The notes below the pieces were generated by a model. It did not search any database, had not been told where the DNA came from, and was given only the letters and a program-made list of their open reading frames with translations. From Actinomycetota bacterium (GTDB taxonomy: Bacteria; Actinomycetota; Geothermincolia; Geothermincolales; RBG-13-55-18), in contig JABLXL010000045.1 in assembly GCA_013178005.1 (NCBI GenBank), positions 4,438-68,437 on the forward strand: a stretch of 64,000 bases of DNA, given 5' to 3'. The translations under genes were made by a program, and so were the position numbers. Below are positions 20,173-36,620 of this stretch, piece by piece. Numbering within the stretch: position 1 is the first letter of the stretch; each line of letters starts with the position of its first letter.

Positions 20173-20604
20173 ATGAAGATAGCCGTGGTGGATGGCATGG
20201 GCGGCTCCATAGGGCACCAGATCATACTGGGCTTGAGGAAAAATCTCCCGGAGGAAACGGAGATCATCGCCCTGGGAGCGAACGCCATAGCTACGGGAAA
20301 TATGATGAAAGCAAGGGCTAACCGCGGCGCCACGGGCGAGAACGCGGTACGCGTATGCATCAACGAAGCGGACGTGATCATGGGAAGCCTTTCCATCATC
20401 ATGCCCAACGCCATGATGGGGGAACTAACCCCGGGGATGGCCACCGCCATCTCTTCGGCGCCGGGGCGCAAGATACTGCTTCCTCTCACCAACCCACGCA
20501 TAGAGGTCATGGGCACGAGCGAAACGCCCCTGCCCAAGCTAATCGAGGAGGCGGTGGAGATGGTAAGGGAGATGTGCGCGAAGGGAGGAGGCGGCGATGT
20601 GTGA
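20173..20604 (+). CDS. DUF3842 family protein
   Basis: IAVVDGMGGSIG, ALGANAIAT..MMKA.ANRGATGENA, GELTPGMATAI. Confidence 0.8.
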   Translation: MKIAVVDGMGGSIGHQIILGLRKNLPEETEIIALGANAIATGNMMKARANRGATGENAVRVCINEADVIMGSLSIIMPNAMMGELTPGMATAISSAPGRKILLPLTNPRIEVMGTSETPLPKLIEEAVEMVREMCAKGGGGDV

Positions 20605-20791
20605 GGCCGCGGTCTTCCTTGACCGGGAAGGCAAGCTGGAGAAGGTCATGGACGACGTGGTGGAGATGAGGCCCGAGGAAGGCAAGCTCCTGCTGGTGGA
20701 CGTCTTCGGGGAGCAGAAACTGGTCTCGGCCAGGATCAGCCGGGTCGACCTCATGGACCACCAGGTCATCCTGCGCGAGGTGGAGGCCTGA
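20597..20791 (+). CDS. cooT: CooT-family nickel-binding protein
   Basis: 64 aa starting MCEA, LVDVFGEQK, terminal DLMDHQVIL; overlaps the DUF3842 stop. Confidence 0.8.
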   Translation: MCEAAVFLDREGKLEKVMDDVVEMRPEEGKLLLVDVFGEQKLVSARISRVDLMDHQVILREVEA

Positions 20792-20985
20792 GCGGCCGGA
20801 CAGGGCGTCCGGCTGTATCGCAGGCGCGGGCACAGGCGGGTTAAACAGAGGGCACGGGGATAGCCGCACCCGGGCCGGCGTCCGTAAACGCGTTTAAGCG
20901 AGCACCTCATCTCGGCACCTCATCTCGGCACGAAGGCGCGCTAGAGAGCCGCATCCCGGCGCATCGGATGCAAGGCGAGAAAGAT

Positions 20986-21969
20986 TCATCCCACGGCGGT
21001 GCCGGCGGTACGGGCGCCGGGAAGGTCCAGCTCCCATTTCCCGCAGCGCCCGCCCCAACGGGCAAGCACGTCGCCCTCCACCATGATCTTCACTATCTCG
21101 CAGTTGTTGGAGCACCCCTTGCAGTTGAAGCTGGAGGTACGGTAGTCGATCTCCGTGACCCTGAACCCCTTGAAGTTCGTGGTCGGGGGATTGAGGTCGC
21201 GGGCCAGGAGCGCGGCGCCGATGGCGCCCATGACTGCGAAATGCTCCGGCACCACCACCTCCATGCCCAAGGCCTCCTCGAAGGCCCGCTTCATCCCCAC
21301 GTTGGCCGCAACTCCGCCCTGGAAGACAACCGGCGCCTCCACGCTCTTGCCCTTGGCGAGGTTATTGAGGAAGTTCCGCACCAGGGCCTCGCAAAGCCCG
21401 AGGATGATGCTGTCCACCGGGTGGCCCACCTGCTGCTTATGGATCATGTCGGATTCCGCGAAAACCGAGCAGCGCCCCGCTATCTGCACCCCGGCCTGCG
21501 CCCGCAAGGCGTAGGTTCCGAACTCCTCGATGGGGATGTTGAGGCGCGCCGCCTGGTGGTCGAGAAAGGATCCGGTCCCCGCCGCGCACACCGTGTTCAT
21601 GGCGAAGTCCACCACGATGCCGTCCTGAAGGATGATGATCTTCGAGTCCTGCCCCCCGATCTCCAACACCGTGCGCACGTCCGGTACCACGTGCAGGGCG
21701 GCCACGGCATGGGCGGTGATCTCGTTCTTCACGATGTCCGCGCCCACGATCACCCCGCTCAGGTGTCGGGCGCTTCCCGTGGTGCCCGCGCCGAGCACCT
21801 CCACGCCGGCTGGAAGCTGGGCGCCCAGCTGCCGCAGGCCCTCCTGCACCGCGCTTATGGGTTGCCCCTTGGTGCGCAGGTAAACGGAGGCGGCGACCTC
21901 CCCGCTCTCCTCCAGCAGGACCAGGTTGGTGCTCACCGAGCCCACGTCAACACCGAGATATCCCCTCAA
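20986..21969 (-). CDS. Acyl-CoA dehydratase activase (BadF/BcrAD/HgdC ATPase)
   Basis: GVDVGSVST, TTGSAR, NEITAHA, EIGGQDSK, MNTVCAAGTGSFL, RCSVFAESD, FQGGVA; C-terminal CKGCSNNC...RCG. Confidence 0.92.
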   Translation of the reverse strand: MRGYLGVDVGSVSTNLVLLEESGEVAASVYLRTKGQPISAVQEGLRQLGAQLPAGVEVLGAGTTGSARHLSGVIVGADIVKNEITAHAVAALHVVPDVRTVLEIGGQDSKIIILQDGIVVDFAMNTVCAAGTGSFLDHQAARLNIPIEEFGTYALRAQAGVQIAGRCSVFAESDMIHKQQVGHPVDSIILGLCEALVRNFLNNLAKGKSVEAPVVFQGGVAANVGMKRAFEEALGMEVVVPEHFAVMGAIGAALLARDLNPPTTNFKGFRVTEIDYRTSSFNCKGCSNNCEIVKIMVEGDVLARWGGRCGKWELDLPGARTAGTAVG

Positions 21970-22010
21970 GCCGTCCTCCAGTCGTCGAAAGCCTTCTCGC
22001 AGTCCCTAAC

Positions 22011-22039
22011 ATTTTATTGCCCGGCGGGCGGGCAGGCAA
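22011..22039 (-). promoter_or_regulatory. Sigma70-type promoter for the activase gene
   Basis: TTGCCT-N17-TAAAAT on the minus strand. Confidence 0.55.
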
Positions 22040-22114
22040 ACGGGAGCAGCGCCGACTGGAGATACTGTAGTAACACAGCGTGACTGCAAGATCGAAGGCT
22101 TGCCTCAGCCCGAC

Positions 22115-22666
22115 CTATATTTCGCGTTCCTCCCAAACGATGGGTTGCAGGTCAAACCTCATGCTAACCGTCTCGCCCCGTGGGTCGATCTCGTTCTCGT
22201 GATGATTGAAAAGGAACCCAAGCTTCTTGTAGAAGCCTTCGCTAGCCCTGTAGGCGTCAACAGAGAGGAAACGCAAGCCCATCCATTCTTGAAGGTCCAA
22301 CGCAAGCCCGATGACATCGTAAACCATCGCCCGGCCTATTCCCTTGCCTTGGAACCCCTTGCATACCGCAAGTCGGCAGATCTTGAGAGCAGGGAATTCA
22401 GAATATGGTATTCGGTATTCTTTTCTAATACGTCCCTTTTCGTTCGAATCAAGGCTTATGCAGTCCGTCGCCAGGCTATAGAACGCTACGACCTCTGATC
22501 TGTATCTGACCAGGGTTGTCATTGCCACGTTGGCATCCTGATGTACGAGGGCGTCATTGATGATGAAGTCATCAAGGTCTTTGTCGCCACAGTTAAAGTC
22601 AAGGGGGACATTTTCCTTGGAAAGTGGCTCAAAGCTTAAGTCTTGAATGGAGAAACCTTCAGTCAT
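22115..22666 (-). CDS. GNAT acetyltransferase, toxin-like (AtaT/TacT-like)
   Basis: FNCGDKDLDDF, VAFYSL, PALKICRLAV, QGKGIG, RFLSVDA, FYKKLGF; visibly more AT-rich than the flanks. Confidence 0.82.
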   Translation of the reverse strand: MTEGFSIQDLSFEPLSKENVPLDFNCGDKDLDDFIINDALVHQDANVAMTTLVRYRSEVVAFYSLATDCISLDSNEKGRIRKEYRIPYSEFPALKICRLAVCKGFQGKGIGRAMVYDVIGLALDLQEWMGLRFLSVDAYRASEGFYKKLGFLFNHHENEIDPRGETVSMRFDLQPIVWEEREI

Positions 22667-22847
22667 CCCGTGACTTCAAGACGGATGGAAATGCTTTGCG
22701 ATGCTTGCTTAGCTCCTTGTGGATCTCGCGCGCCTCTTTCAATAACCGGTCTTTTTGAGGGCTGTATTCGGCTTGCGTTATGCTCATGCAGAACAAGTCA
22801 ACGCTCTTTCCCTTCAGCGTTGGAGTAGGCTCAATCGGTCGTGCCAT
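22659..22847 (-). CDS. 62-aa protein, putative antitoxin of the GNAT
   Basis: GGAGG RBS, MARPIEPTPTLKG...; stop overlaps the GNAT start (ATGACTGA). Confidence 0.6.
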   Translation of the reverse strand: MARPIEPTPTLKGKSVDLFCMSITQAEYSPQKDRLLKEAREIHKELSKHRKAFPSVLKSRDD

Positions 22848-23338
22848 AAAAACCTCCACCGGATAACTGCGAGAAGCCCTCACAGAGCAAATTCTTCCGC
22901 TCCCCGGCCTCTTTCCTTATCTCTCTGTTTGTTATCGTACCCTTTGAGGCTTTATTTTAATCTATTTTGTCAATCCCATTCCATGAGCGAGGGAAGATCG
23001 TGCCCGGGGACATCGAACCACCGGGCTCCGGAGGGGGCTTTCCTGCTCGCAGCAGGCCGGAGCCGGGAGCTCGCTCCGCCCTGTTAGCGCCGCCGGGAGG
23101 CAAAAATGGAGCAATTGAGTGCCTTGCAGATTTTTACCATCCTTTTAGCGCCGCCGGGAGGGGAGCCCGTCGGGCGATCCTTGGCCTCTCTGACGCTACG
23201 GCTGACGCCGGCGCCCAGCAGGCAATCCGGCCGAGGCGCCGCTCTGCCGCCGCCCCGCGGGCGATGGCGCTCGCGGCGTGTTTCGTGAGGCGGGAGCGAC
23301 CGGAGCGGCAGGCGCCCGTCAGGAGATTGTTGGCCCGA

Positions 23339-24235
23339 TCATCGTCGGAGAAGAGCCAGCTCGTCGATGTCTAAGGGGATCCCTTTCCTCTCGTCACGCG
23401 TCAGGCTGGGAACGCCCCACTCGCACCTCTCCGCGCATAGCCCACATCCCATGCAGAGGTCGAAGGAGACCAGCGCTTTTTCCTCCCCGTCGAGGGAAAG
23501 CGCCCCGAAGGGGCAGGCTTCGACGCAGGCGCCGCACCCGGCGCACGCGGCGCGGTCGATGACCGCAAGGTAGCCCGAAGGAGCGGCGATCACGGGCGGC
23601 GACTCCACACGTAACGCGCGGGCAAGGCGGGCGCTCTCCAGGGCGTCACAGTAACTTGGAGGGCAGTTGCAGATGGCGAAGAAGCGGTCGCCGGCCGCGT
23701 CCTTGAACCAGGCGGTGGGCACGCTGCCGCGCTCGCGTTCGCGGTGCAGGATCTCCAGGGCCTCCGTTGCGCTGACCCTGCGGGCGTGAAGCCTCTCCGC
23801 CCCGTGCTCCAGCCAGAAGCTCGCCACCGGTTCGCCCACCGCCAGGCAGACGTTGAGGGCTTCGGGGTCGGCGACGCCTTTTTCGATGCGGCAGGCGCAG
23901 TCCATGGCCACGATGTGCTGCGGCTGGTCCAGGATGATGCGGTGGGCGTGGGGGAAAGGCACCACTCGGGCGCTCAGTTCGGGATCCATGATCACGTCAT
24001 GGTCCAGGGTGAGGATCTTTGCCGCCTGCTCCTCCGTCAGCACCTTGCAGTGGTAGCGGTTGAAGAAAAAGTCGAAGATGAAACGCCCGCGGGGGAAAAG
24101 GCGGACGTATCTCCTGGCGATGGCCATGAGCGTTTTAATGTAACGGTCGATCCATCGGTAATAGACGTAGCCGTGGAGAGCCCGGTCGATCCTCCAGCCG
24201 TGGAGTCGGAACAACCTCCGGGTGGATTCTCTCAC
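23339..24235 (-). CDS. 4Fe-4S dicluster (polyferredoxin-like) protein
   Basis: CAGCGACVEAC and CMGCGLCAERC, plus MDCAC, VCLAVG and CNCPPSYC. Confidence 0.85.
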   Translation of the reverse strand: MRESTRRLFRLHGWRIDRALHGYVYYRWIDRYIKTLMAIARRYVRLFPRGRFIFDFFFNRYHCKVLTEEQAAKILTLDHDVIMDPELSARVVPFPHAHRIILDQPQHIVAMDCACRIEKGVADPEALNVCLAVGEPVASFWLEHGAERLHARRVSATEALEILHRERERGSVPTAWFKDAAGDRFFAICNCPPSYCDALESARLARALRVESPPVIAAPSGYLAVIDRAACAGCGACVEACPFGALSLDGEEKALVSFDLCMGCGLCAERCEWGVPSLTRDERKGIPLDIDELALLRR

Positions 24236-24304
24236 TCACACCCCCCTTACGCTCGCGGTTTTCCGGCCTCCGTGCCGGGCGTCATGCCCGGCGGGCTGGT
24301 CCGC

Positions 24305-25750
24305 TCATCCCCGCTCCGGCGCCGAGGCCCCGGGCGCCGGGGCCTTCCTGCGCCTGGACTGGGCCCTCTTCCTCGCCACCACCTGCTCCACGAAGGTCTT
24401 CACCTCTTCCTGGAACATCTCCATGGGCGTGTGCCTCTTGTCGAAGACGTCCCCGTAGATCATCAACGTGGGAAGCCCGAGCCGCTTCATCATCTCCCGG
24501 CGGAAGAAGGCCGCCGTGCCCAGGGTGTGCTTGCAGGCATGGACGCCGCCGAATATGCAGGCGTCGGCGCCCAGGTCCTGGGCCGCGTAGGCGATGTCGT
24601 CCAGCCAGCGCAGGGAGATGGACTCAGCCCCCATCTGCCGGGTCATGGGATAATCGAAGGCGATGTCGGCGAGGGCGCGCAGCATGCTCTCGCGCGAGGA
24701 GGGGTCCTTCTCTGGAAAATAATGTATGGCAAGTATATCCCCGAGGATAGAGATCCCCTCCTTCTCCATCCAGGTGAAATAACCGGCGAAGTCGAAGAGC
24801 CAGTAGATGTAGGTGATATAAACCCTGGCCAGCTCCTCCGGCGCGGTGTACTCGCCCCTGCGCAGCCTCTCCTTTGATATGTCCACCATCCTCTGCATCA
24901 CGTCCACCGCCTCCTGCCTGCCCCAGCACTGGCTGCGCAACACCAGCAGGGTCATGCTGAAGATGTTGGGCACCGGGCAGGGCCTGGCCTTCTTCAGCTC
25001 CCAGTACTCGTGGTAGAGGTCGACGGCCTGGTAGGATCTCTCCATCACCTCGCGCAATCGCTCCTCCCTGAGCTCCGATCCGGACCATTCTTCCAGTTCC
25101 TGGATGAAGCGCTTCAGGTAGTTGTAATACAGCTCACGCCCTCGCCTGGACTCGTCCACCGGCTTTTCCAGGATGAACTGGGGGATGCCGAGGTAATCGG
25201 AGGCGAAGGCGTGTATCTTGGCGTTTGGGTTGCAGCTGCCCGCGGAGTTGTAGACGATGGCATCCGGCCTAATTCCCGGGCCCATGAACAGGGGCATGGT
25301 GCCGATGGTGTTGGCCGAGCAGAGCGAGTCGGGCAGCCCCAGGCCCATGGCGAAGTCCCAGAAGCGCTCCCCCTGGCCGTAACAGATGTTGGTGATAAGG
25401 CCGCCGACGATTTCGGTGCACAAGGGGAAGATGTTGTCGAAGGCGTAGAAGATCTCGGGCGGGAAGGTGAAGGGGATGAAGACAAGCTTCTTGCCTTCGG
25501 CCTGGGCGTTGCGGGCTTCCCTGAAGATATTCATGAGGAGGCGGAAGAAGAAGAGCTCGAGCTCGCGGTCCGCCGGCAGCTCCAGCAAGCCGATAACGGT
25601 GTTCTGGAGCTCCGGGTAGACGAAGTTCCGCGCCGCCTCCACGTCCTCTTCGCTGAGGTTGTCGGGGAGCTTGTAGATCATCTCCAGGATGGCCAGGGCG
25701 CGCTCGAAGCCGTTCTCTCCCTCGCGCATGACGAAGCCTTTTTCCATCAT
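24305..25750 (-). CDS. 2-hydroxyacyl-CoA dehydratase subunit (HgdAB/HadBC/FldBC family)
   Basis: PPEIF, GLPDSLCS, AGSCNPNAK, NEVMERS-like helix, GGVHACKH, GLPTLMIYGD. Confidence 0.85.
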   Translation of the reverse strand: MMEKGFVMREGENGFERALAILEMIYKLPDNLSEEDVEAARNFVYPELQNTVIGLLELPADRELELFFFRLLMNIFREARNAQAEGKKLVFIPFTFPPEIFYAFDNIFPLCTEIVGGLITNICYGQGERFWDFAMGLGLPDSLCSANTIGTMPLFMGPGIRPDAIVYNSAGSCNPNAKIHAFASDYLGIPQFILEKPVDESRRGRELYYNYLKRFIQELEEWSGSELREERLREVMERSYQAVDLYHEYWELKKARPCPVPNIFSMTLLVLRSQCWGRQEAVDVMQRMVDISKERLRRGEYTAPEELARVYITYIYWLFDFAGYFTWMEKEGISILGDILAIHYFPEKDPSSRESMLRALADIAFDYPMTRQMGAESISLRWLDDIAYAAQDLGADACIFGGVHACKHTLGTAAFFRREMMKRLGLPTLMIYGDVFDKRHTPMEMFQEEVKTFVEQVVARKRAQSRRRKAPAPGASAPERG

Positions 25751-26871
25751 GCCCCACCTCCTATCCTCTCCATGAAAGCCTGCACGCGGGTTTTCACCCT
25801 CCCGAGGTCCGCCCTGGCGCTGTACTCCTTCTCCAGGACCAGCACCGGTATGCCGGCGCTCTCCAGGTCGCGGCGCACCAATACGGAGTCCACGCCGTGC
25901 AGGTCGCAGAACTTGTTGTAAAGGTAAATCGCCCCGTTTACGCGAGCCCGGCGCGCCGTCTCCAGGATGAATTCCCGGCGTTTGGGGTATTCCAGGTACA
26001 TGCGGGGGCAGAAGATGCTGGACAGGTAACCCTCGGCAAGGCGCCGTAAGGGTGGGCCATCCTTGGGCATGGCCTGGGCGAAAGCACGTGACCCGAAGCA
26101 CAGGGCATCGGCCACCACCACCGCCCCCAGGCGTTCTATCTCCTCGAGCCATTCCACTTCGTCGGTTGCGGGCCCGCACAACATGAGCCGCGCCGTGGGC
26201 CTGACCCCCACCGAGCCCGCCTTTTCATCCATGTACCGCGCGAGAAGGGCGGCGAAATCCTCGCTTCGCATCGACGAACCCGTGACCTCCAGCGAAAGTG
26301 CTTCGCTGCCGGTGACCTTGGGCTCGTCCAGCTCGCGCAGGGCGGATAGCCTCCGCCACCCTTCCCTCACCTCCTCCCAGCCGCGTATCGCCTCCTCAAG
26401 GGCATCATCGGTCACCTCCACGGAGAATTTGTTCTCCAGCAGTTCCTTCAGCAGGGAGAGGTTTTCCTCGAAGTAGGCCAGGGAGTCGTCGCGGAAGAAA
26501 TGCGGTACCTTGAGGTAGAAGAAGCAGTCGAATCGCCTCTGGTGCTGCCAGTTCTCGAACATGGCCCGCAGGTGATCGCAGCCGTTGGTCTCGATGAGGC
26601 CGTCGAGAAAATCATAGGTGCCGTCCAGGCCCAGCTGAAGGCAGGCGCGGCAGAAGGAGCAGTTGAAGAGGGACATCTCTCCATCGGCGAGCTCCGTCTC
26701 CGCGTTGCCGAGGGCCTTGATGCGGTAGGGGAGCAGGCCCGCCGCCTCGATGAGCTCCACGGGGGTCGCCACGCACGAATATCCCACGACCTTGCCCCCC
26801 GCCTCCTTCCATTCCCTTACGCGTTGGTTGAATATCTCCGTTTCCCTTTCCAGGGCCCTGGTCGCCTCCAT
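25747..26871 (-). CDS. 2-hydroxyacyl-CoA dehydratase subunit (D-component family)
   Basis: VGYSCVATPVELIEAAG, CSFCRAC, NGCDHL, FCDLH, GIPVLVLEKEY, RVKTRVQAFME. Confidence 0.9.
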   Translation of the reverse strand: MEATRALERETEIFNQRVREWKEAGGKVVGYSCVATPVELIEAAGLLPYRIKALGNAETELADGEMSLFNCSFCRACLQLGLDGTYDFLDGLIETNGCDHLRAMFENWQHQRRFDCFFYLKVPHFFRDDSLAYFEENLSLLKELLENKFSVEVTDDALEEAIRGWEEVREGWRRLSALRELDEPKVTGSEALSLEVTGSSMRSEDFAALLARYMDEKAGSVGVRPTARLMLCGPATDEVEWLEEIERLGAVVVADALCFGSRAFAQAMPKDGPPLRRLAEGYLSSIFCPRMYLEYPKRREFILETARRARVNGAIYLYNKFCDLHGVDSVLVRRDLESAGIPVLVLEKEYSARADLGRVKTRVQAFMERIGGGA

Positions 26872-26874
26872 CTC

Positions 26875-28302
26875 TCACACCCCCCGCGTTCTTCTGCGCG
26901 TCCATATCCCCTTGACGTACCCCCTGATGCCGCCGACAAGTACGGATATCGCGGCCTTCAGGAGGGGCTTCAGCGCCGACGGGTTGCGCCGGAGCGCCGC
27001 CGCCACCTGGTCCCCCGTGGCCTTGGCGGCCCGCTCCAACTCCTGCGCGTCGATGCCCGCGAGGAAAGCGCTCGTCCTGTCCGCGAGCGCCTCGGGATTC
27101 CCGCTCAACCACTGGTTGTAGGACTCGATCGCCCGATTGACCCCCCTAGCCGCCGCCTCGGGACCCGCCTCGAGCCCGAGGGCGGACAGGGTTTGCCGTG
27201 AAAGCCCGGCCACGAGGCCCGGGTTCTCCGCGACCATCCTGCGCCCCAGAGAGGCCAGCGAGGCGATCGCCCTGCCCAGCTCCCCGACCTCCAGCCCGTC
27301 GGACATGGATGTGGCCATCTTGCCCAAGGCCTCGCGCGAAAGAGAATTCGCTTTTTCCAGGAACGAGGACGCGAAGAGGAAGAATGAATTTGCCAGAGAG
27401 ACCGTGGCCTCGAACAGCCGCACCGCAAGCTCCTCGTTTTCAAGGACCCTGTTTGCCAGCGCGCTCGCAAGCGCCTCGGCCTCCTCGCCCACGGCCGCGA
27501 TGGCCTCCGCGAGCACTTGCCCGTCTATGGCTCCGATCAGGTCCGAACTGATCCGTTGCAGGGGCTCCCTGGAATAGAGGCTGCCGTCGCCCAGGATGAG
27601 GCTGCCGCGGTGCACGTTGACGATGAACGCGGAAGCCCCGTTGATGACCGCGGCGACGTCGTTCCAGTCGAGGTCTTGCAGGATCTTGAAAAGCGCATAG
27701 GTGACCGCCTCCGCTGGAAGGGCGAGGATGTCGAAAAGCGCCCTCAAGACCTTCAACGCGTCGTTGATGACGGGCGCCACCACGCTGAACATGTTGATCA
27801 AGGCCATGGGGCTGTCCCCCAGCAACTCCACCTCCCTGCGGGCGAGGTCCAGCCTCTCCCCCACCCTGTAGGTGACCGCTTTGCGCAGCTTGCCGAAGTC
27901 GATGGCCTGAACCGCCTCGGCGAACAGCCCTGACTGGAAGGAAGCGAAAAGCTCAGGGTTTTCCTCGTGCAGCCGGATCACCAGGCGCGAGAGCGCGTTG
28001 AGCGCCTCGCCGATCTCCTCTCCTTTAACTTGAGCGTAAGACCTGGCGACCAGTTCCGCCGCCTCCTGCGCGGGCATGCCCTCCATGGATTCCGCGAAGG
28101 CCTTCACGGCGTGCGCCGCCGCGCTCACCAGGCGCGGCAGGGACTCCACCAGCGCGGAGGTGAAATCCCCGTCATCTCGGAAAAGAGTGCCCGCGAGTTG
28201 CGCGGGGTCGCTTTCCCGCAACCCTTCCAGCAGGCGAACAGCCGCCTCCCTCATCTCCTCCGCTTTCGGGGGTACGCCCCCTTCTCTCACCGCCATCCTC
28301 AT
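26875..28302 (-). CDS. Hypothetical all-alpha repeat protein (in-frame alternative starts at 28419 and 28536 due to triplication)
   Basis: GAGGTG RBS; amphipathic helical repeats; basic C-terminal tail; stop 4 nt before the dehydratase start. Confidence 0.75.
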   Translation of the reverse strand: MRMAVREGGVPPKAEEMREAAVRLLEGLRESDPAQLAGTLFRDDGDFTSALVESLPRLVSAAAHAVKAFAESMEGMPAQEAAELVARSYAQVKGEEIGEALNALSRLVIRLHEENPELFASFQSGLFAEAVQAIDFGKLRKAVTYRVGERLDLARREVELLGDSPMALINMFSVVAPVINDALKVLRALFDILALPAEAVTYALFKILQDLDWNDVAAVINGASAFIVNVHRGSLILGDGSLYSREPLQRISSDLIGAIDGQVLAEAIAAVGEEAEALASALANRVLENEELAVRLFEATVSLANSFFLFASSFLEKANSLSREALGKMATSMSDGLEVGELGRAIASLASLGRRMVAENPGLVAGLSRQTLSALGLEAGPEAAARGVNRAIESYNQWLSGNPEALADRTSAFLAGIDAQELERAAKATGDQVAAALRRNPSALKPLLKAAISVLVGGIRGYVKGIWTRRRTRGV

Positions 28303-28584
28303 CACCTCACCGTGGAAAGACCGCCCGGCGGCGCCAGCGTACCCTCGCCGGGCGAACACCGCCTCCCTCATCTCCTCCGCTTTCGGGGGTACGCCCCCTT
28401 CTCTCACCGCCATCCTCATCACCTCACCGTGGAAAGACCGCCCGGCGGCGCCAGCGTACCTCGCCGGGCGAACAGCCGCCTCCCTCATCTCCTCCGCTTT
28501 CGGGGGTACGCCCCCTTCTCTCACCGCCATCCTCATCACCTCACCGTGGAAAGACCGCCCGGCGGCGCCAGCGTACCCTCGCCG
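28233..28584 (-). repeat. Tandem triplication of a 118-bp segment with effective period 117 bp
   Basis: CGCTTTCGGG occurs at 28261, 28378 and 28495; each junction lacks one base at a different position. Confidence 0.95.
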
Positions 28585-29096
28585 GCCCCACTCTCCCGGT
28601 CTCCCCAGAGCCCGCATCCCCCTATCCCGATATCCCGACAGCGGGCTCAGCTGTTTTCGCTCCGGAGCCTGTTTCCCACGGCCTGCATCATTTCGCCGCC
28701 GTCGACAAGCGGCGTTCTCCGGGTAAACGGATCGCGGAGTAGTGCGGATGTACGACGATGCGGTATCGAGACCGTATTACGATTCCCAGTTGCGTGTTCC
28801 GCCGATGATCCCGGCGCCGCCTCGCGGCGCTAACGATCGGCTCCCTCTTTTCGACTTCATCGAGGCGGCAAGCGCAAGATCACCGCCGCCCGTGATCCCT
28901 TGCCGCCGCCATCCACTCGCCTGCCCGTATCTTCAAACCCCCTCGGGGGCGCGTGGTCGAGATGCCTGTGCCGGCGACTTCCCCCTGCCCCGCGAGGAGA
29001 AGCACGGGGTCGATATCAAGCCATGACAACCCGCCGCCTCTTTACACCAGCCGTGGGCGAGCCGCGCCCACAGCCGCCTTTCGTACGCCGCTTTCC

Positions 29097-29516
29097 TCAC
29101 CCCTCGACCTTTTTCCAGGGAATGGCGCGCGCCAGCAACGCGATGTAGAGCATGAAAAACCAGAGGATGAAATGCACTCCCCACGACGAGGGCTCCTTGC
29201 GGCGCAGCCTGTTGGCGATGAGCAGGCAGGTCATGGTCTTGTACATGATCTGGGTGTAGAGGACGGGAAGGTATCTCTCGAAATTGCCCTCATCGCGAAG
29301 GGCCGCCGCCGAAAGCGCGCCCACGGAGGTTACGATGGAGCCGTAGATGCCCATCATCACCGGGTCGTCGTAAGGCCATTTGAGGAGCTTGCGGGCGAAG
29401 CCCGGCGCCAGCGCCATGGGGGGGCCGGCGCTGAAGCACATCACGACGTTATAGCCGTACATGAACTTCTGCAGGCGCTTCTTTTTCTCCAGGTAGGTTT
29501 CTTCCGCTGCCATCAT
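29097..29516 (-). CDS. Hypothetical membrane protein (about 4 TM)
   Basis: Several hydrophobic helices; WPYDDPVMMGIYGS; located within the operon. Confidence 0.7.
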   Translation of the reverse strand: MMAAEETYLEKKKRLQKFMYGYNVVMCFSAGPPMALAPGFARKLLKWPYDDPVMMGIYGSIVTSVGALSAAALRDEGNFERYLPVLYTQIMYKTMTCLLIANRLRRKEPSSWGVHFILWFFMLYIALLARAIPWKKVEG

Positions 29517-29580
29517 CCATCTCCCTTCCCAGGCACCCCTTGCGATGAGCTGCGGCGCGACGCCTCGGTGGGGTCGTCGC

Positions 29581-30258
29581 TCACCCACGCGCTCTCTTCA
29601 CGGCGGCACGCAGGACGATGAGGGCGGCGACCGCGCCTGCCAGCGGGAGGAGCTTGCGGCCCCCGCCGCGGCGCTTCTCTCCGCCGCCCGCCCTGGCCGC
29701 GGCGGCCGCGATCGAGCCCAGGCGCCTCAGCGACCGCGCCAGCGCCTCCCTATCCAGTTCTTTCCATATAGCGGCAAGGCTCTTCCCCATCTCCTCGCGC
29801 CTGGCATCGAGTTCGGCGGTCACCTCGTCCAGGCGACCGATGGCCGCGTTCGCCGCCTTCACCGCCGCCGACCGCACATCCTCGGGGGCGGCCTCGTCGC
29901 CGAAGAGCAGGCGCCGGGCGAGCTGCCCGAACACCTCCGGAAGTTGCCTCAGCCTCTCTTCGTCGATGCCCCCTCCCACCTGTCCCAGGATGTCCTTAAG
30001 GAGAGGCTCCGGCAGGCCGTTAAGCTGCCTGCCCAATTCAAGCAAAAGCTCCAGGAGCCAGTTCACAGCGTCGGGAAGGGCGCCGAATATGCTCATGGAG
30101 ATGCCGGGGTCCCCCCACAGCAGCGTCTTGACCAGCCCCGGGGCGGTATCGGCCTTTATGTCCTTCATCTGCAGGAGGATAATCTCCTTGAGGGCGGGGG
30201 TGGCGATTATCTCGCGGAGCACGCGCTCCCCCAGGCCCATGGGTGTTTGTTCCCGCAT
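29581..30258 (-). CDS. Hypothetical helical protein with C-terminal hydrophobic anchor; paralog of 30275-30973
   Basis: GGAGGTG RBS; VLREIIATP..KE, LLWGDPG, LPEPLLKD, GID; ends LLPLAGAVAALIVLRAAVKRARG. Confidence 0.75.
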   Translation of the reverse strand: MREQTPMGLGERVLREIIATPALKEIILLQMKDIKADTAPGLVKTLLWGDPGISMSIFGALPDAVNWLLELLLELGRQLNGLPEPLLKDILGQVGGGIDEERLRQLPEVFGQLARRLLFGDEAAPEDVRSAAVKAANAAIGRLDEVTAELDARREEMGKSLAAIWKELDREALARSLRRLGSIAAAAARAGGGEKRRGGGRKLLPLAGAVAALIVLRAAVKRARG

Positions 30259-30274
30259 CCGGTTCACCTCCCCG

Positions 30275-30973
30275 TTATCCCTCATCGCGGGCCGGCTTTT
30301 TCGTCCCGGCCGACGTCCTCTGGGCTCCCGATGTCCCCATAACCGGCTCGAGGATGGGCTTGAGCACATGCTCCACGAAGGCGGGATTCTCCCTCACCGC
30401 CCTTGTCGCCGCCTGGACGAAGCCGTGGACGGCCGATTCCGGATCCTGGGCGCGCTCCGCGGCCCCCGCCATCCACGCCCCCAGGCGCTCATCGAGTCTC
30501 GCGCCGGAGGCCGCGTCGGAGTATGCCCGGCTGAAATCCTCCGCCATGGCCGACAGCCCGCGCCTGAGAACGCTCTCTTTGTTCGATATTCCCAGGGAAA
30601 GGACCATGGAAACCAGCCCGCCGGCGGCCTCTCCCGCCGCCGCACCGTCGATTCCCGCCACCACCTGGTTGAGGAAATCCTGCAGCAGGGGAGGGGGCAT
30701 GGTGTTCATCTGGTTGGCCACCTCCGCCAGGGCTTCGCTGATCACGTTGATGAGGGAGGGGAGGCTGCCCATGAGGGAGAGCAGGAGGCCGGGGTCCTGC
30801 CAGAAAAGGGTGCGCACCAGCCTCCTGGCCGAGGGTGGATCGATGGAATTGAGCAGTATGACCAGGGTCTCCTTGAACTTGGGGGTGCGGATCAGCTCGC
30901 GCAGGATGCGATCCGCGGCGTCAATCAACCCCCTGGTATCCACGACGGCAGCGGCTTCGGTATCGTCTTTCAT
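30275..30973 (-). CDS. Hypothetical helical protein; paralog of 29581-30258
   Basis: GAGGTG RBS; ILRELIRTPKFKE, LFWQDPG, MPPPLLQD, GID. Confidence 0.75.
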   Translation of the reverse strand: MKDDTEAAAVVDTRGLIDAADRILRELIRTPKFKETLVILLNSIDPPSARRLVRTLFWQDPGLLLSLMGSLPSLINVISEALAEVANQMNTMPPPLLQDFLNQVVAGIDGAAAGEAAGGLVSMVLSLGISNKESVLRRGLSAMAEDFSRAYSDAASGARLDERLGAWMAGAAERAQDPESAVHGFVQAATRAVRENPAFVEHVLKPILEPVMGTSGAQRTSAGTKKPARDEG

Positions 30974-31370
30974 TTTTCTCACCTCACAGCTTCTCGCGTT
31001 GGCGGAAGCGGTTTGCCGCCTCCGCGTACCCTGGCTACCCCATGCCCACCGTGTGCGCCCGTACTCGTGGGCCACCCCTTATATCGACGCTCCCTCTGCC
31101 TCGCCAGGCCGGCCGGCGAAGGACACCCCCTGCGGACGACGCAGCCAAAGAGCTGAAATAACCAGGCCGCGTTTTCGGTGGCGCCTGATTCCCGGTCGGG
31201 ACGCCTCCCATTCCCGCGGGAAAGGAGGCGGCTCCTCGGGGCGCCTCGCCCCGTCCATCCGTTCCGCCCGCCATCTACGGCCGTCTCCTCCGAAACTCTC
31301 GAAGCCGACGGATCACAACCCCTACCGGCGCCCCCTTTCCCCGAGCTTTAGCCCTCGGGTCCTCCGTCCG

Positions 31371-32603
31371 TTATAGGGTCACGGTATCGTAGAACCAGCG
31401 CGCGAAGTCGTGCTTGGCCAGCTCATAAGCGCCGAGGTGGCATTGCATCGCCTTCACGTCGCGCCAGTAACGCTCCAGTTGCCATTCCTTGGCATAGCCC
31501 GCGGAGGCCATGAGCTCCATGGTGCGGTTGATGGCATGCTCCGCCGAGGCGCATGCCTGGTGGGCGAGCATGAGGGCCATGGTGTAAAGGGCCTGCGAGC
31601 CGTCTCCGCCGTATTCTCCCGCTTCGGAGAGCATCCCGGCCAGCTCGTAGGCGAGCAGCCGCACCACGCTGGTATCCTTGGCGACCTCCCCCATGACGGC
31701 CGCGGTAAGTGGGTTGTCCTTGAAGATGTGGTCCTTGCCCTTGATCACGCGGTTGTCCCCCCACTCCCTGATGATCTCGTAGTTCGCTAGGAGCGCCCCG
31801 GAGGCTGTCGCCGCCACCCCCAGGTAATACCAGGAAAGCAGGCGGAAGGTCCCTTCGTTCCCGCGCCAAGCGCAGTTCGCGTCGGGCACCGTGGCTTCCA
31901 GGCGCTCCAGGTCCGCGTTGCGGCTGGCCGCGAGCCCGGTTTTCTTGAGCTCTGTGCCGCGTGCGATGCCCGGCGTGTCTCCCGGCACGAGAATGAAGGC
32001 GGGATCCCCGTCCGCCACCGCGCACCACGCGCCGAATAGGTCCGCGTCCAGGCCGCAGCAGGTGGGCCGGACCATTCTCCCGCTCACCTTCCACGCGTTG
32101 CCTGATGGCGCCGCTACAACCTGGAAGCCCTTTCCCCTCCACTCCGGCGCGCCCTCCTCTTCGGTGAGCGCGGGAAGGATGAAGGAGACCCGAACCGGCC
32201 TGTCGCCCGAGCAGAACAGGGAGGCGAATGCGGCGCAGGTTTCCTCACGGCGCGCGCCCTCCTGGGCCAGGGCGGCCTGCAGGGCGAGGCTGTGGGCGGC
32301 CAGGAAGGCCAGCCCCGTATCCGCCCTGCCGATCTGCTCCAGGGCGGCGACCACCGTGTACGCCGCGTCCGGGCCGTTATGGCCTTCGCCCCCGTGCTCC
32401 TCCGGCCAGAACATCTTCTGCAGCCCGATCTCCGACATGATCCTGGCGAAGGAAGGCGCCAGGAGCTGCTCGTAGTCCTCCTTCAGTTCGAGGCGCTTGT
32501 CCATGATCTCCTTCTCGACCAGGGCCTGGAGGGTCGCGGCCAGGTCCAGGTCGGCCTTGTCGAGCCTCTTCCTCGGAAAGGGAATGATCTCCATAGCGTT
32601 CAT
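31371..32603 (-). CDS. Acyl-CoA dehydrogenase family protein, degenerate subunit
   Basis: EQIGRADTG, WKVSG, KTGLAASRNAD, ASAGYAKEWQLERYWRDVK; no obvious catalytic Glu. Confidence 0.85.
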   Translation of the reverse strand: MNAMEIIPFPRKRLDKADLDLAATLQALVEKEIMDKRLELKEDYEQLLAPSFARIMSEIGLQKMFWPEEHGGEGHNGPDAAYTVVAALEQIGRADTGLAFLAAHSLALQAALAQEGARREETCAAFASLFCSGDRPVRVSFILPALTEEEGAPEWRGKGFQVVAAPSGNAWKVSGRMVRPTCCGLDADLFGAWCAVADGDPAFILVPGDTPGIARGTELKKTGLAASRNADLERLEATVPDANCAWRGNEGTFRLLSWYYLGVAATASGALLANYEIIREWGDNRVIKGKDHIFKDNPLTAAVMGEVAKDTSVVRLLAYELAGMLSEAGEYGGDGSQALYTMALMLAHQACASAEHAINRTMELMASAGYAKEWQLERYWRDVKAMQCHLGAYELAKHDFARWFYDTVTL

Positions 32604-32652
32604 CGCCTACCCCCGCTGTCTTTCATGGTGGCTTCCTCTCCCATGGCGCGGC

Positions 32653-33927
32653 TCAAAGGGTTTCGCACTCGTAGAACCAGCGGGCCACTTCGATCTGGCA
32701 AAGCTGTTTCGAGCCCTCCACGAGCTGCAATATCTTGAGGTCTCTCCAGTGCTTCTCCACGTCCCAGTCGCGATCCGTCCCGTAGGCCTCCATGAGGTTC
32801 ATCACCCTGCCGGTGACGTCGATAAAGCGATCCATGGCCAGGTAACGCTGGGCGCGCATCTTGGCGACGAGGCGCGGGTGCCATAATGGGCCGTAGAGGT
32901 CATGGCGGTCACACATGCGCGCGCACTGGTAGCCCACTATGCGGATGTTCTCGATGTTGGCCGCGAAATCGGCCAGCAGGCCCGCCACGCCGTCGTCCTC
33001 CTTGAGGGGCTTGCCGCGGTAGCGCTTGCGGCTGGTGTATTCCGACAGGCGTTCGTAGATGTTCATCATTGCTCCGGATATCCAGGCGATGATGCCCATG
33101 TTGCCCGTGGCCATAACCTCCCCGAAGTACTTGGCGTCGTCGCCGGGGCCGATGGCGCGGTACCAGAGGGGAACCCGCACGTTCTCGAACCAGATGTCCG
33201 AGTTCATGTCCGCGGCCATGCCCGCCTTTTCGTAGGGCGGCCCCTGGGTGACCCCGGGCATGTCGTCCTTGACGAAGATGACGGCGATGTCGCGCGGGTC
33301 GTCGGAACCGGGGTTGGTGGTGCACACCACCGCCATGAGCTTGGCCAGGCCGCCGGTGTTGGAGGGCCAGAGTTTGTGGCCGTTGATCACCCACTCGTCG
33401 CCGTCCTTCACCGCCGTGGTCTGTATGGTGGTGCCCTTGACGATCTCAACGTTCTCGATGTCCGATCCTCCCTGGGGCTCGGTCATGCAAAGGGCCGCGA
33501 AAACCGGCTCGGTGGTCTCGCAGAACATGGGCGCGAATTCCTCCAGCAGCCTGCGGTTCTCGTGGGGCTCCAGGGCGATGAAGAGGAAGGGCCAGAAAAG
33601 GGCGCCGAAGGCCAGGGCCATACCGGAGTCGGCGCGCGCTATCTCCTCGAACATGCGGAAGGCGGCCACGCACATGTAGTTCGACCTCCCCATCCCCCAA
33701 CCCCCGAGGTCCTCGGGGAAGATCATGCGCTGCAGGCCGTACTCTCCCAGGAGCTTCTTGAAGGGTGGGTGGATGAGGTGGTGCTCACGGTAGTCCTCGT
33801 CGAACTGCCTGCGGTAGGGGATGACCTCCTTTTCCACCCACTCGCGGAATATGGAACCCAACAGGCCGTCCATGGGCGAGATATATTCCAGGGGTCGCGT
33901 AAAGTCGTCGATGCTCCTCATCCACAT
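32653..33927 (-). CDS. Acyl-CoA dehydrogenase
   Basis: EEIARADSG, CMTEPQGGSD, WVINGHKLW, FENVRVP, VEKHWRDLKILQLVEG. Confidence 0.92.
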   Translation of the reverse strand: MWMRSIDDFTRPLEYISPMDGLLGSIFREWVEKEVIPYRRQFDEDYREHHLIHPPFKKLLGEYGLQRMIFPEDLGGWGMGRSNYMCVAAFRMFEEIARADSGMALAFGALFWPFLFIALEPHENRRLLEEFAPMFCETTEPVFAALCMTEPQGGSDIENVEIVKGTTIQTTAVKDGDEWVINGHKLWPSNTGGLAKLMAVVCTTNPGSDDPRDIAVIFVKDDMPGVTQGPPYEKAGMAADMNSDIWFENVRVPLWYRAIGPGDDAKYFGEVMATGNMGIIAWISGAMMNIYERLSEYTSRKRYRGKPLKEDDGVAGLLADFAANIENIRIVGYQCARMCDRHDLYGPLWHPRLVAKMRAQRYLAMDRFIDVTGRVMNLMEAYGTDRDWDVEKHWRDLKILQLVEGSKQLCQIEVARWFYECETL

Positions 33928-34108
33928 CTCCCTCCAGCCGGCGGCTTACGGTACGGATAGGCGGCTTGTTTCCGGGGGAGACCACGGCTTGCGAAGCCGA
34001 GATGTAAGAACCCCTCCCTGTCCAGAAAGGCTCCGCAGCCGCTTGGCGTATGGCAACGTAAGCCGAGAGCATTCACGCCGGCTGTCGGAGCGAGACCGCC
34101 ATGGGCAA

Positions 34109-34137
34109 ATATTATGACCGGGGTCAGTTTTTGTCAA
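34109..34137 (-). promoter_or_regulatory. Sigma70-type promoter of the acyl-CoA cluster with palindromic operator TGACCGGGGTCA (34115-34126) in the spacer
   Basis: TTGACA (34137-34132), N17, TAATAT; the palindrome sits between the two boxes. Confidence 0.7.
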
Positions 34138-34546
34138 TACGCTTCCCGTGCCCGGATGATAGGTTGGCCCCCCGTTTTTTCAGCCTGGAAAGCGCCTGAC
34201 CGAGACGATACAGCATCCCTGTGCCTGGCAGAGGTTTTTCAGCGCTTCTCGCCCGATTATAAAAAAGTATGCGAGAAGCCTCGAAACCGGGCATTATCCT
34301 GCAGGTCGGCCCATACCATGCCCCATGCTGTGGAGCTGGAAGGGCGCTTTAGCCGGCAATGTTTTCGGGGGCCGTGGAAGCGCTCGAGGAAAAGAGGGGA
34401 ATTGTTGCGAAAAATATGAACAGTATGGTTTACGCAAAGGCGGAGTCATTGCCATTAAGGCATGGTCCAGGGCGAACGCGATGGATGGACCTTTCCTGGT
34501 GTGATTTATGCCGTTCCATGCCCATGAACCACACGAGCCGTTTTCG

Positions 34547-35635
34547 TCAAGACGGCTTAATGGAGAGGGCGAGCGTCCCTCCATCGATGGAATAATCGAA
34601 GGTCGAATCCAGGCCGGAATCGTACTCCCACATTGCCACCAGGCGTCCCGCGAGCAAGGGCGCGATGAAGGCGTTTTTCACCACGATCTCCGTGGTGCCC
34701 CCCTCTCTTCGTAAGGACTCGAGGTATCCAAGGCCGCGAAGAGCCAAGTGACTCCTCAGCTCGGATTCCTGTAATGGATCAGACATTGAGTCCTGCCCCT
34801 TCTGCGCCCTGGCCAGCTTTCTTTTATACAAGCGGCGCTCGGCCTCCAGGAAGACCTCGGCCGTGGTCCCTCCCAGCTCGAGGTCGAATTCCCTTATCAA
34901 GGAATGCAGGAGATATAGGCCGGGGAAAACCATCCGCTCCCCCCCGGCTTTTTCCACCAGCAAGCCGTCTTCCAGCTTCCACGCAAACGAATCTCCCAGT
35001 GCGCTGGGCGCTCCGCAGCGCCCGCAGGTCGGAAGGATTTCTCCCTCGAGCTTGTCTGGTACGAGCCTGGAGGGGGCCAGGCGCTCATAAGCCTCCTCCT
35101 CGACGGCACCTTGAGCCTGTCGCGCCTCCATCGAGTAGGCGCCGTCCTCTTCCCCAAGGTCGTAGAGAACGGGCAGGTTGTATATCGCCCTCATGGCGCC
35201 GACCACCATGGCCGAAACGAGGAAGACATTGAAGGGGTTCTCTATGCGCACCCTGACCCTGCGCTTCCCCTGGCCGCCTTTCTGCCCGAGCAAGGTTATA
35301 TTCCCTGCCCCGACCGCCCTCGCCAGTTTCGCGCTGGCTTCGTAGGCGAGACGGTGCAAGGGCCACCTCTTGAGCAACCTGAACAACGCCGGGTGCGCGT
35401 TGATGGCGTCCCCGACCACGCCTTCCGCCGCGTTTGCCGCGGCCTTGAAAACCAGGTCGTCGACGCTGATGCCCAGGAGGGAGCCGACCTCGTCGATCAG
35501 GGAATTCATCGACGCCGCCTCGTAGAGGAATAAATTGGCATTGCCGCTGGCCCTGTCCACGATGCAGCCCTCTTCCCAGGCATGTGACTTGGTAAGAGCC
35601 TTGGGAACCCCGCAAGCGTTGCATGACTCATTCAT
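34547..35635 (-). CDS. Hypothetical protein with two internal CxxCG-initiated domains (possibly V4R-like)
   Basis: SCNACGVP..L...HAW and TCGRCGAP..L...FAW halves; GGAGG RBS. Confidence 0.65.
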   Translation of the reverse strand: MNESCNACGVPKALTKSHAWEEGCIVDRASGNANLFLYEAASMNSLIDEVGSLLGISVDDLVFKAAANAAEGVVGDAINAHPALFRLLKRWPLHRLAYEASAKLARAVGAGNITLLGQKGGQGKRRVRVRIENPFNVFLVSAMVVGAMRAIYNLPVLYDLGEEDGAYSMEARQAQGAVEEEAYERLAPSRLVPDKLEGEILPTCGRCGAPSALGDSFAWKLEDGLLVEKAGGERMVFPGLYLLHSLIREFDLELGGTTAEVFLEAERRLYKRKLARAQKGQDSMSDPLQESELRSHLALRGLGYLESLRREGGTTEIVVKNAFIAPLLAGRLVAMWEYDSGLDSTFDYSIDGGTLALSIKPS

Positions 35636-35825
35636 CGCACATCCCCTCCCTGCTGAGACCTCCCTGCTGCTATCGAATATCGTCTGGCGCGCAAAAGGGC
35701 TTGAGTCCATGAAGTCGCCAAGTTCCGGTGGCTGGAAGGAAATGGGATTTGGAGAGCCCTTCTCCTGTTACTGGCTCCGGTGTGGCCGTCGAAACGTCTG
35801 GATGGTAGAAATCACCGGGCAAGGC

Positions 35826-36524
35826 CTACCGCCGGCCCTTGCTTCGCTCGCCCCCGTTCTTTCCCTTGGGGCTCGAGGAAGCGCCGTTCTTTGCTCCCTG
35901 GATCAGGAGGTCGATTGAGGAGGAGAAGACATGGTCCATGCCGGAAGGATCGATGACCACCAGGTCGTCCAGGAGGGCGAGCTCGACCAGGCTGGTGGCC
36001 AGCCTCCAGCACATGAGGCTGAAGGCATAGGGGTCGAGTTGTGGGGAGAAGGCCCCGCGCTCCATTCCCTCCCGCACCATACCGGCGCCGTTTTCCAGCC
36101 ATCCCTTGATGTATCGTTCGATCCTCTCTATGGTGGTCTGCGAGAGGTTGTGGCGCACTTGCTCGATGAACGTGTCACGCAACACGCGGAAAAGCGCCGG
36201 TTCCTCCAGCGCGTACTCGATGTAGGCGAGATAGACGGCTCGAATCCTCTCCTCGAAATCGGCGGCCTCGTCGTACGCCCTGGTGAGCCTTTCCCCGTAG
36301 CCGGCGAGGCCCATCAGGCACACGGAAAGGTAGAGCTCCTCCTTGCTCTTGAAATACAGGTAAACGCCGCCCTTGGAGAGCCCCGCCTTTTCCGCCACCT
36401 CCTGGATGGTGGTGTTGCGGTAACCCTTCTCCGAGAACAGCTCCTCCGCGGCCGCGAGCACCGCGCTCCTGCGCTCCTGCTTCTTCGCTTCCCGGCGCGG
36501 AATTTCCTTGGTTGGCATGGTCAT
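35826..36524 (-). CDS. TetR/AcrR-family transcriptional regulator
   Basis: AAEELFSEKGYRNTTIQEVAEKAGLSKGGVYLYFKSKEEL. Confidence 0.95.
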   Translation of the reverse strand: MTMPTKEIPRREAKKQERRSAVLAAAEELFSEKGYRNTTIQEVAEKAGLSKGGVYLYFKSKEELYLSVCLMGLAGYGERLTRAYDEAADFEERIRAVYLAYIEYALEEPALFRVLRDTFIEQVRHNLSQTTIERIERYIKGWLENGAGMVREGMERGAFSPQLDPYAFSLMCWRLATSLVELALLDDLVVIDPSGMDHVFSSSIDLLIQGAKNGASSSPKGKNGGERSKGRR

Positions 36525-36620
36525 CGTCCCCCTTCCGCCGCTGTTCCCGTCCGCCGACCAGGCCTGAGACCGTCGCTCAAGAGCTTGCCGACGGGGCCGA
36601 GAAGGGCCCGTCGAAAAAAT

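Follow-up and report, generated by a model that had tools for sequence, protein, structure and literature searches.

We describe a gene cluster on a 64,000-nucleotide stretch of DNA from an Actinomycetota bacterium (the window; all coordinates are positions within it, and + and - denote its strands), which we read as a TetR-controlled operon with a displaced activase gene. Judged from its genes and their relatives, the cluster would encode an undescribed member of the radical-enzyme superfamily of the class I benzoyl-CoA reductases (BCR-I), the 2-hydroxyacyl-CoA dehydratases (HAD) and DCCP, with a core resembling BzdNO. The predicted enzyme would catalyse the ATP-driven reduction of an acyl-CoA, with a heteromer of acyl-CoA dehydrogenase (ACAD) fold acting on the same ester and orphan helical proteins serving as scaffold or tether; taken as a whole, this reading has in our estimate about an even chance of being right. 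What the sequences themselves establish is the identity of the domains, the sets of cofactor ligands and the linkage of the genes across phyla. The genes that an earlier note on this DNA had listed between 20986 and 33927 were all found on the minus strand, at the coordinates that it gave (Table 1).

The core of the predicted enzyme consists of two subunits, beta and alpha, whose genes overlap by an ATGA start/stop. Among sequences of solved structures, beta best matches BzdN (E=6e-48), followed by HadC (1e-34) and DCCP (2e-23). In BzdN the [8Fe-9S] cluster is held by Cys36/73/100/263/293/327, and the catalytic [4Fe-4S] cluster of BzdO is held by Cys95/128/380; the double cubane was lost in HADs and kept in BCR and DCCP (PMC11971306). 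All six BzdN cysteines align with cysteines of beta (C33/71/98/258/288/322), none of which varies among 27 homologues, whereas HadC has Pro and Ala at the positions of C33 and C258. Residues R50, R262 and H325 of beta are also conserved and correspond to R53, R267 and H330 of BzdN, where four basic residues surround the distal cubane and three of them are thus retained. The six cysteines of beta are the predicted ligands of an [8Fe-9S] double cubane.

The alpha subunit is highly divergent: searched as a single sequence, it reaches an E-value of 3e-8 at best. In a profile built from 34 sequences, C144, C173 and C406, invariant in all of them, align with C95/128/380 of BzdO and with the ligands of HadB, and are predicted to hold a [4Fe-4S] cluster. 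The same profile aligns alpha with HadB from end to end, placing the invariant E113 on HadB Glu55, and has DCCP as its best match. The N-terminus of alpha is not alignable to BzdO, and a phmmer search of this part against PDB sequences gave zero matches; Glu65 of BzdO may match E113, and Trp46 may match F94. The full six-Cys set of beta and the three-Cys set of alpha give the core a BzdNO-type architecture. None of the curated models for BzdN/O, BcrC, HadB/C and DCCP reaches its cut-off: beta scores 159.8 against bzdN (TIGR03190, cut-off 453.8) and alpha 28.5 against bzdO (TIGR03191, cut-off 448.6), with 37.4 for HadB (NF052455, cut-off 750), 139.7 for HadC (NF052456, cut-off 700) and 172.3 for DCCP (NF040772, cut-off 350). 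By its sequence, the core is built like a BzdNO enzyme, yet it lies outside every named family. The two subunits had been called dehydratase subunits, an identity that is not supported, as the cofactor signature is of the BzdNO type and the HadB and HadC cut-offs are not reached.

Upstream in the same operon lie two genes for ACAD-fold proteins that are 29% identical. ACAD1 carries the TEPQGGSD motif and Glu404, which is aligned with the catalytic Glu of solved ACADs, and its best PDB matches are ordinary ACADs (E=2.5e-33). ACAD2 is degenerate, as had been noticed before: its FAD motif is degraded and the catalytic Glu is absent, and a Glu never occupies this position in the family. Adjacent genes, one of them lacking the FAD motif and the catalytic base, are the mark of heteromeric ACADs, and by this architecture ACAD1/ACAD2 is a heteromeric ACAD. 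ACAD2 adjoins ACAD1 in every cluster-bearing locus whose contig extends there. ACAD1 is 59-98% identical to its orthologues (98% to that of Ca. Solincola daggyaiensis), with an invariant FAD motif and 145 of 424 positions nearly invariant, and the ACAD partner forms more than 650 clusters at 90% identity.

To place the cluster among its relatives, a profile of beta homologues was used to collect 80 loci from species-representative genomes, six more were added by exact protein look-up, and the window proteins were searched against the first 85 (loci are numbered with the prefix L below). ACAD1, bigHel (a large helical protein), beta and alpha occur together on one strand in 46 of the 85 loci, so the gene set does recur in other genomes, across several phyla. 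The sources are many metagenome-assembled genomes (MAGs) of Actinomycetota (Candidatus Solincola, Geothermincola, Anoxymicrobiaceae and Acidimicrobiales-labelled bins), together with Bacillota, represented by Syntrophomonadaceae, Dethiobacteria and the genome from a biogas fermenter, and Myxococcota or 'Deltaproteobacteria'; the close homologues all come from MAGs. In the beta maximum-likelihood tree, a single clade with a support of 96/91 unites all 83 family members; it sits on a long stem and is separate from BzdN, HadC and DCCP. The ACAD-linked loci include basal branches of this tree, and the ACAD linkage is therefore probably ancestral. We found no description of the cluster in the papers searched on BCR and double-cubane enzymes, on Geothermincolia and Solincola, and on HAD together with ACAD in Actinomycetota, and no matching published pathway, in agreement with its earlier designation as undescribed. 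The thn naphthalene operon and the fld and had operons were considered as matches and rejected on gene content.

The usual gene order in the family is TetR, ACAD2, ACAD1, helA-like, bigHel, beta, one to three alpha genes, two ATPases, CdhC-like and CooC-like. In the clade of the window it is FeS2 (divergent), TetR, ACAD1, ACAD2, helA, helB, the hydrophobic protein, bigHel, beta, alpha, an optional FeS and a single 327-aa ATPase; in the nearest loci (L001, L006-L009, L011, L013-L017) beta is 68-82% identical to that of the window. Three or four paralogous copies may occur in one genome, as in the SURF_21 MAG (L012, L021, L033 and L073). In one paralogous cluster of related Actinomycetota MAGs (L033, 2458-5736; L031, 5-1800), genes for a PaaK-like CoA ligase and for the electron-transferring flavoprotein (ETF) subunits EtfA and EtfB stand directly upstream of ACAD2-ACAD1-bigHel-beta-alpha. 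No other observation speaks as clearly as this linkage for CoA esters as what the family acts on and for an exchange between the ACAD pair and ETF, both of which we consider plausible from the gene arrangement. Within the window, the absence of ETF, CoA-transferase and 2-hydroxyacid dehydrogenase genes stated in the earlier note was borne out, as none was found in the about 57 open reading frames (ORFs) scanned; CoA-transferase and 2-hydroxyacid dehydrogenase are also not among the frequent neighbours in 41 loci.

Further features were seen in the relatives. In L020, L036, L041, L046, L053 and others a single beta gene comes with two or three paralogous alpha genes, which suggests that several catalytic subunits share one electron-storage subunit. 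Genes for a CdhC-like protein of about 240 aa, derived from acetyl-CoA synthase, and for a CooC/MinD-type ATPase lie right after the ATPases in most relatives, among them L004, L020, L036, L064, L075 and L086; neither is present in the window according to tblastn. A possible lead in a cultured organism is Swol_0412 of Syntrophomonas wolfei, annotated as a HAD/BCR-type [4Fe-4S] subunit and abundant in butyrate-grown cells (PMC3582634), which may belong to the family.

The activase is an ATPase of the ASKHA type whose TIGR00241 score (189.5) exceeds the cut-off (125.4). It matches MbdQ, HadI and HgdC with E-values from 1e-34 to 1e-39, its cluster cysteines Cys128 and Cys167 lie in DKCAAGTG-like and CxVFAES motifs, and it ends in a conserved 70-aa tail with a CxxCxxxC...C motif. 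In L007, L009, L013 and L015 the activase gene follows alpha after 98-280 nt, and the interval between the two has gained different cargo in the window, L001 and L006. Because the activase stands directly after alpha in these relatives, we take it to be part of the system and the GNAT gene pair that precedes it in the window to be an insert; its assignment to the cluster is thereby borne out. The separate promoter once ascribed to it comes down to a promoter-like site matching 9 of 12 consensus positions only (22039-22011, -).

Two Fe-S proteins are encoded with the cluster, and both are likely electron donors, judging from their sequences. FeS and FeS2 are 40% identical and have in common six invariant cysteines beyond those of the ferredoxin domain. 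FeS2, whose true start is likely near 36780 (M-VKESTKK), is syntenic and divergent from TetR in L001, L006-L009 and L015, and in Geothermincolia-type MAGs dedicated Fe-S proteins are repeatedly encoded close to the family. The N-terminal Cys6 domain of FeS has no family match, and a fold search with the FeS model matched through the ferredoxin domain only. FeS had been described as a polyferredoxin; the Fe-S part of this description stands, with one 2x[4Fe-4S] domain, but 'poly' is an overstatement, as the rest is a Cys-rich domain of no known family.

The remaining proteins of the operon are helA, helB, bigHel and a small hydrophobic protein, none of which has a Pfam or NCBIfam match. The paralogy of helA and helB, already suspected, is supported by 44% identity over 90 aa (E=1e-22), and bigHel has an N-terminal domain in common with both (E=1e-6). 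Forty-five helA-like ORFs occur across the loci. In cluster-bearing loci bigHel lies immediately upstream of beta, and a search of 1.84 billion proteins with its profile gave 642 representative clusters. The structure model of bigHel is all-helical and confident, and a Foldseek search with it against the PDB returned 0 matches. The view of these four as dedicated, uncharacterised accessory proteins, with no detectable family or fold, agrees with our results. The small hydrophobic protein, previously described as a 4-transmembrane protein, shows one strong hydrophobic segment and three weak ones, which makes four transmembrane segments plausible but does not demonstrate them; its orthologues are confined to 10 loci, all in the clade of the window. 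Among the orthologues of L001, L006, L007 and L009, several have Cys-rich tails, for example GACCGEEG and CCAESGEGCCR, which the window copy lacks.

The 5' end of bigHel is unusual, as its ORF stays open to 28617 through three tandem copies of a 117-bp unit. As a result the beginning of the gene, with its ribosome-binding site, start codon and first few codons, is present three times in frame. In two independent metagenomes the depth of the repeat unitig is about three times that of its flanks (73 versus 21, and 35 versus 13), and the triplication is therefore probably real and no assembly artefact. A junction variant of the repeat, with a C insertion after 28458, was also seen.

We infer an electron path, a CoA-ester substrate, a net reduction and a role for the helical proteins as follows. 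FeS and FeS2 would hand low-potential electrons to the [4Fe-4S] cluster bridging the ATPase ('archerase') dimer, and ATP hydrolysis would push these electrons to the [8Fe-9S] double cubane of beta. The next stop would be the three-Cys [4Fe-4S] cluster of alpha, where the thioester carbonyl of the bound acyl-CoA would be converted to a ketyl radical. The likeliest outcome would be that a conjugated or aromatic acyl-CoA undergoes a net reduction by two electrons, coupled to ATP, and a redox-neutral radical elimination would be less likely. The ACAD1/ACAD2 heteromer would take the same CoA ester in a neighbouring redox step, exchanging electrons with an ETF encoded elsewhere, while helA, helB, bigHel and the small hydrophobic protein may be structural or tethering subunits of a larger complex.

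Several findings weigh against this reading. Linkage to an ACAD, with ETF and ligase, is the classical sign of a dehydratase pathway, as in the had and fld operons, and not of BCR. The window clade has only one ATPase gene, as dehydratases do, whereas most relatives encode two distinct ATPase genes, as BCRs do. Alpha is about equally distant from BzdO, HadB and DCCP; even by profile the E-values lie between 1e-8 and 1e-15. The position of BzdO His131 is occupied by an invariant Asn (Asn176). In 33 of 38 ACAD1 orthologues, from 37 loci, the catalytic Glu is replaced by Met or Leu (LQLW[ML]GGKQ; for example L075, 6079-7365), and a conventional dehydrogenase step is therefore doubtful across the family. 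Glu-bearing ACAD1 occurs only in the window, L001, L006, L007 and L008, and L001 and L006 have a Glu-type copy besides a Leu-type copy; going by these residues, the flavoprotein of the family may not be a conventional dehydrogenase, while the window copy could be one. In addition, four metatranscriptome runs yielded a single 159-nt contig, on beta, which is too little to demonstrate expression of the operon.

The same observations bear on the explanations that compete with an ATP-driven reductase. In the dehydratase model, which goes back to the earlier note, the radical syn-elimination would be redox-neutral, with the activase priming it catalytically, and the ACAD would then reduce the enoyl-CoA product, as in HadI-HadBC-AcdB/EtfAB or FldI-FldBC-AcdA/EtfAB. 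The membership of both core genes in the HGD-D family, the single-gene activase of the window clade and the ACAD in the operon fit this model, and so do the EtfAB and CoA ligase genes beside the paralogous cluster, in a fld-like arrangement, and the end-to-end alignment of alpha with HadB, including the Glu55 equivalent. We nevertheless regard it as unlikely, if far from negligible: beta retains the six-Cys double-cubane set that HadC has lost, BzdN is its best match and the HadB and HadC scores fall far short, the operon of most relatives includes two ATPase genes, and the CoA-transferase and 2-hydroxyacid dehydrogenase of such pathways are found neither in the window nor among the frequent neighbours in 41 loci. 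A true dearomatising aryl-CoA reductase, i.e. a BCR isoenzyme that takes benzoyl-CoA or one of its substituted or polycyclic analogues, with the ACAD pair acting on the dienoyl- or cyclohexenoyl-CoA product, is quite improbable. The long stem that separates the whole family from BzdN in the beta tree argues against it, as do the replacement of BzdO His131 by Asn, the unmet bzdN and bzdO cut-offs and the lack of linked dienoyl-CoA hydratase or ring-cleavage genes. On its side are the BzdNO-like cofactor architecture, the several alpha paralogues per beta in relatives and a second acyl-CoA operon in the window with an old yellow enzyme (OYE), an enoyl-CoA hydratase, a thiolase-like protein and a ligase. 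The best NCBIfam match of ACAD1, cyclohexane-1-carbonyl-CoA dehydrogenase, points the same way, but scores 121 bits against a cut-off of 650.

The missing catalytic Glu of most ACAD1 orthologues, and of ACAD2 throughout, would be explained if the ACAD-fold proteins were flavin electron relays to a DCCP-like ATP-driven reductase with a substrate other than a CoA ester. DCCP is the best profile match of alpha, and the CdhC-like and CooC-like genes of relatives hint at other chemistry; set against these, the window ACAD1 does carry the Glu, a three-Cys alpha makes the core a heterodimer where DCCP is homodimeric, and a CoA ligase is linked in L033, so that we think such an enzyme very unlikely. 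A role in modifying membrane lipids, with the helical and hydrophobic proteins binding lipid, can be drawn by analogy with the plasmalogen synthase PlsA/PlsR. It would accommodate the hydrophobic tail of helB, the small hydrophobic protein and the amphipathic-looking helical proteins, but the small hydrophobic protein is found in the window's clade only, the sequences show no sign of a PlsA-type fusion architecture and lipid-metabolism genes are not among the linked genes, and the prospect that it is correct appears slight. We also consider, as a further and unlikely reading, a new class of radical-enzyme supercomplex. In it the helical proteins would dock the ACAD-fold heteromer, in most members devoid of a known catalytic base, onto the ATP-driven double-cubane reductase, so that flavin and low-potential Fe-S chemistry would act on one CoA ester, and in the window clade the complex would be membrane-tethered and have its own Cys-rich donors.

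The cluster is wider than the region originally delimited, as TetR and the second Fe-S paralogue FeS2 are syntenic in the closest relatives. From this synteny and the adjacency of the activase in relatives, we conclude that the functional unit spans 20986-37685. The best NCBIfam matches of the TetR protein are fatty-acid regulators, weak and all far under their cut-offs. The window has a G+C content of about 65%, and the GNAT gene with its overlapping 74-aa ORF (22115-22883) is lower in G+C; the two look like an insert of the toxin-antitoxin type between the FeS gene and the activase, going by their sequences. The pair was rejected as part of the system, as it is not present in orthologous loci. 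The 387-aa protein was rejected for the same reason; neither Pfam nor NCBIfam gives a match for it, the 85 related loci contain no homologue, and it is a lineage-specific insertion. The neighbouring TrxR, Trx and DUF3842 genes and the ORF at the CooT position were also rejected, since they are syntenic but convergent. An Rfam search over 20500-38000 gave one sub-threshold match only.

Table 1 Features of the cluster and its surroundings in the 64,000-nucleotide window
Feature	Position	Strand	Remarks
Terminator-like site	20871-20850	-	3' of activase; consensus match only
Activase, HgdC/BcrAD-type ASKHA ATPase, 327 aa	20986-21969	-	BcrAD_BadFG E=2e-46; TIGR00241
GNAT acetyltransferase	22115-22666	-	GNAT Pfam match
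74-aa ORF overlapping GNAT gene	22659-22883	-	No family match
FeS, ferredoxin-domain protein	23339-24235	-	C-terminal 2x[4Fe-4S] and N-terminal Cys6 domain
Alpha subunit (catalytic HGD-D)	24305-25750	-	Pfam HGD-D E=3e-44
Beta subunit (BzdN-like, HGD-D)	25747-26871	-	Pfam HGD-D E=8e-82
bigHel, large orphan all-helical protein	26875-28302	-	AF2 pLDDT 81.7
117-bp x3 tandem repeat	28233-28585	.	TRF score 692
Small hydrophobic protein, 139 aa	29097-29516	-	No family match
helB, orphan helical protein	29581-30258	-	Hydrophobic C-terminal segment, residues 202-221
helA, orphan helical protein	30275-30973	-	No family match; paralogue of helB
ACAD2, degenerate ACAD-fold partner	31371-32603	-	N- and C-terminal ACAD domains only
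ACAD1, FAD-type ACAD-fold subunit	32653-33927	-	All three ACAD Pfam domains
Promoter-like site TTGACA-17-TAATAT	34109-34137	-	About 180 nt upstream of ACAD1; 10/12 consensus match only
387-aa protein, two CxxC pairs	34547-35710	-	Inserted between TetR and operon promoter region/ACAD1
TetR-family regulator	35826-36524	-	TetR_N E=2e-19; heads the cluster in many related loci
FeS2, paralogue of FeS	36639-37685	+	C-terminal 2x[4Fe-4S]; divergent from TetR

Elsewhere in the window, the second acyl-CoA operon (54316-64000) encodes a thiolase-like protein, a ChsH2-type zinc-ribbon protein, an OYE flavoprotein, an enoyl-CoA hydratase, a standard ACAD, an AMP-forming CoA ligase and a molybdopterin oxidoreductase, with a gene for a MerR-TetR fusion regulator in front. 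A group II intron reverse transcriptase/maturase gene (RVT_1 and GIIM domains) lies at 4715-6238.

To our knowledge, some of the most difficult reductions in anaerobic biochemistry are the work of BCR-I/HAD/DCCP enzymes, of which few functions are known. The organism of the window is found in subsurface, hot-spring and rock metagenomes, and the family is widespread in anaerobes of the subsurface, hot springs, sediments and biogas reactors, often in three to four paralogous copies per genome. It offers a double-cubane enzyme with a fixed set of partners, an ACAD-fold flavoprotein without the usual base and three helical proteins whose fold was not encountered in the PDB. Knowing the substrate could point to a new way in which uncultured Actinomycetota and Bacillota degrade carbon anaerobically, and the supercomplex, if it were real, might provide for example a one-electron/two-electron switch for reductions or rearrangements beyond those of the known BCR, HAD and ACAD enzymes.

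Heteromeric ACADs are represented by the steroid ChsE/FadE pairs of Mycobacterium tuberculosis and by PimC/PimD (NCBIfam TIGR03203/TIGR03204). These pairs have the same layout as ACAD1/ACAD2, with adjacent genes of which one lacks the FAD motif and the catalytic Glu. In contrast, the FAD-binding subunit of the present family itself mostly lacks this Glu, the PimC/PimD models match with only 41 and 25 bits, and no ChsE chain is found among the PDB matches of ACAD1. The likeness to ChsE is thus one of architecture and not of sequence, and none of our results bears on the lipophilic or steroid-like substrate that had been suggested earlier.

The 2-hydroxyacyl-CoA dehydratases (HadI-HadBC-AcdB-EtfBA, FldI-FldBC and HgdC-HgdAB; PDB 3o3m, 4eht and 1hux) belong to the same superfamily and likewise have a single-gene activator, an ACAD in the operon and a Glu at the position of HadB Glu55. 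The present system differs from them in that beta keeps the two distal-cubane cysteines lost in HadC, the ACAD is heteromeric, no CoA-transferase or 2-hydroxyacid dehydrogenase was found here and the HadB and HadC scores are far under the cut-offs. DCCP and its reductase DCCP-R (PDB 6eno and 7yyl) have the same six-Cys double-cubane motif and an ATP-driven reductase partner, but DCCP is a homodimer of one subunit type, whereas here beta pairs with a three-Cys alpha. The closest comparison in cofactor architecture is with the class I BCRs of the Bzd/Mbd type (BzdNOPQ and MbdONQP; PDB 8s02, 9g87/9gai; PMC11971306), which have the same heterodimeric HGD-D core, the same six-Cys beta and three-Cys alpha, an ASKHA ATPase partner and a dedicated ferredoxin-type donor. 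These BCRs have two ATPase subunits (BzdP/BzdQ), as do most relatives of the cluster, while the window has one, with a Cys4 tail. The present family forms a separate deep clade, with an alpha that is barely alignable to BzdO and scores below the cut-offs, and it differs from the Bzd/Mbd enzymes also in being linked to a heteromeric ACAD and to orphan helical proteins.

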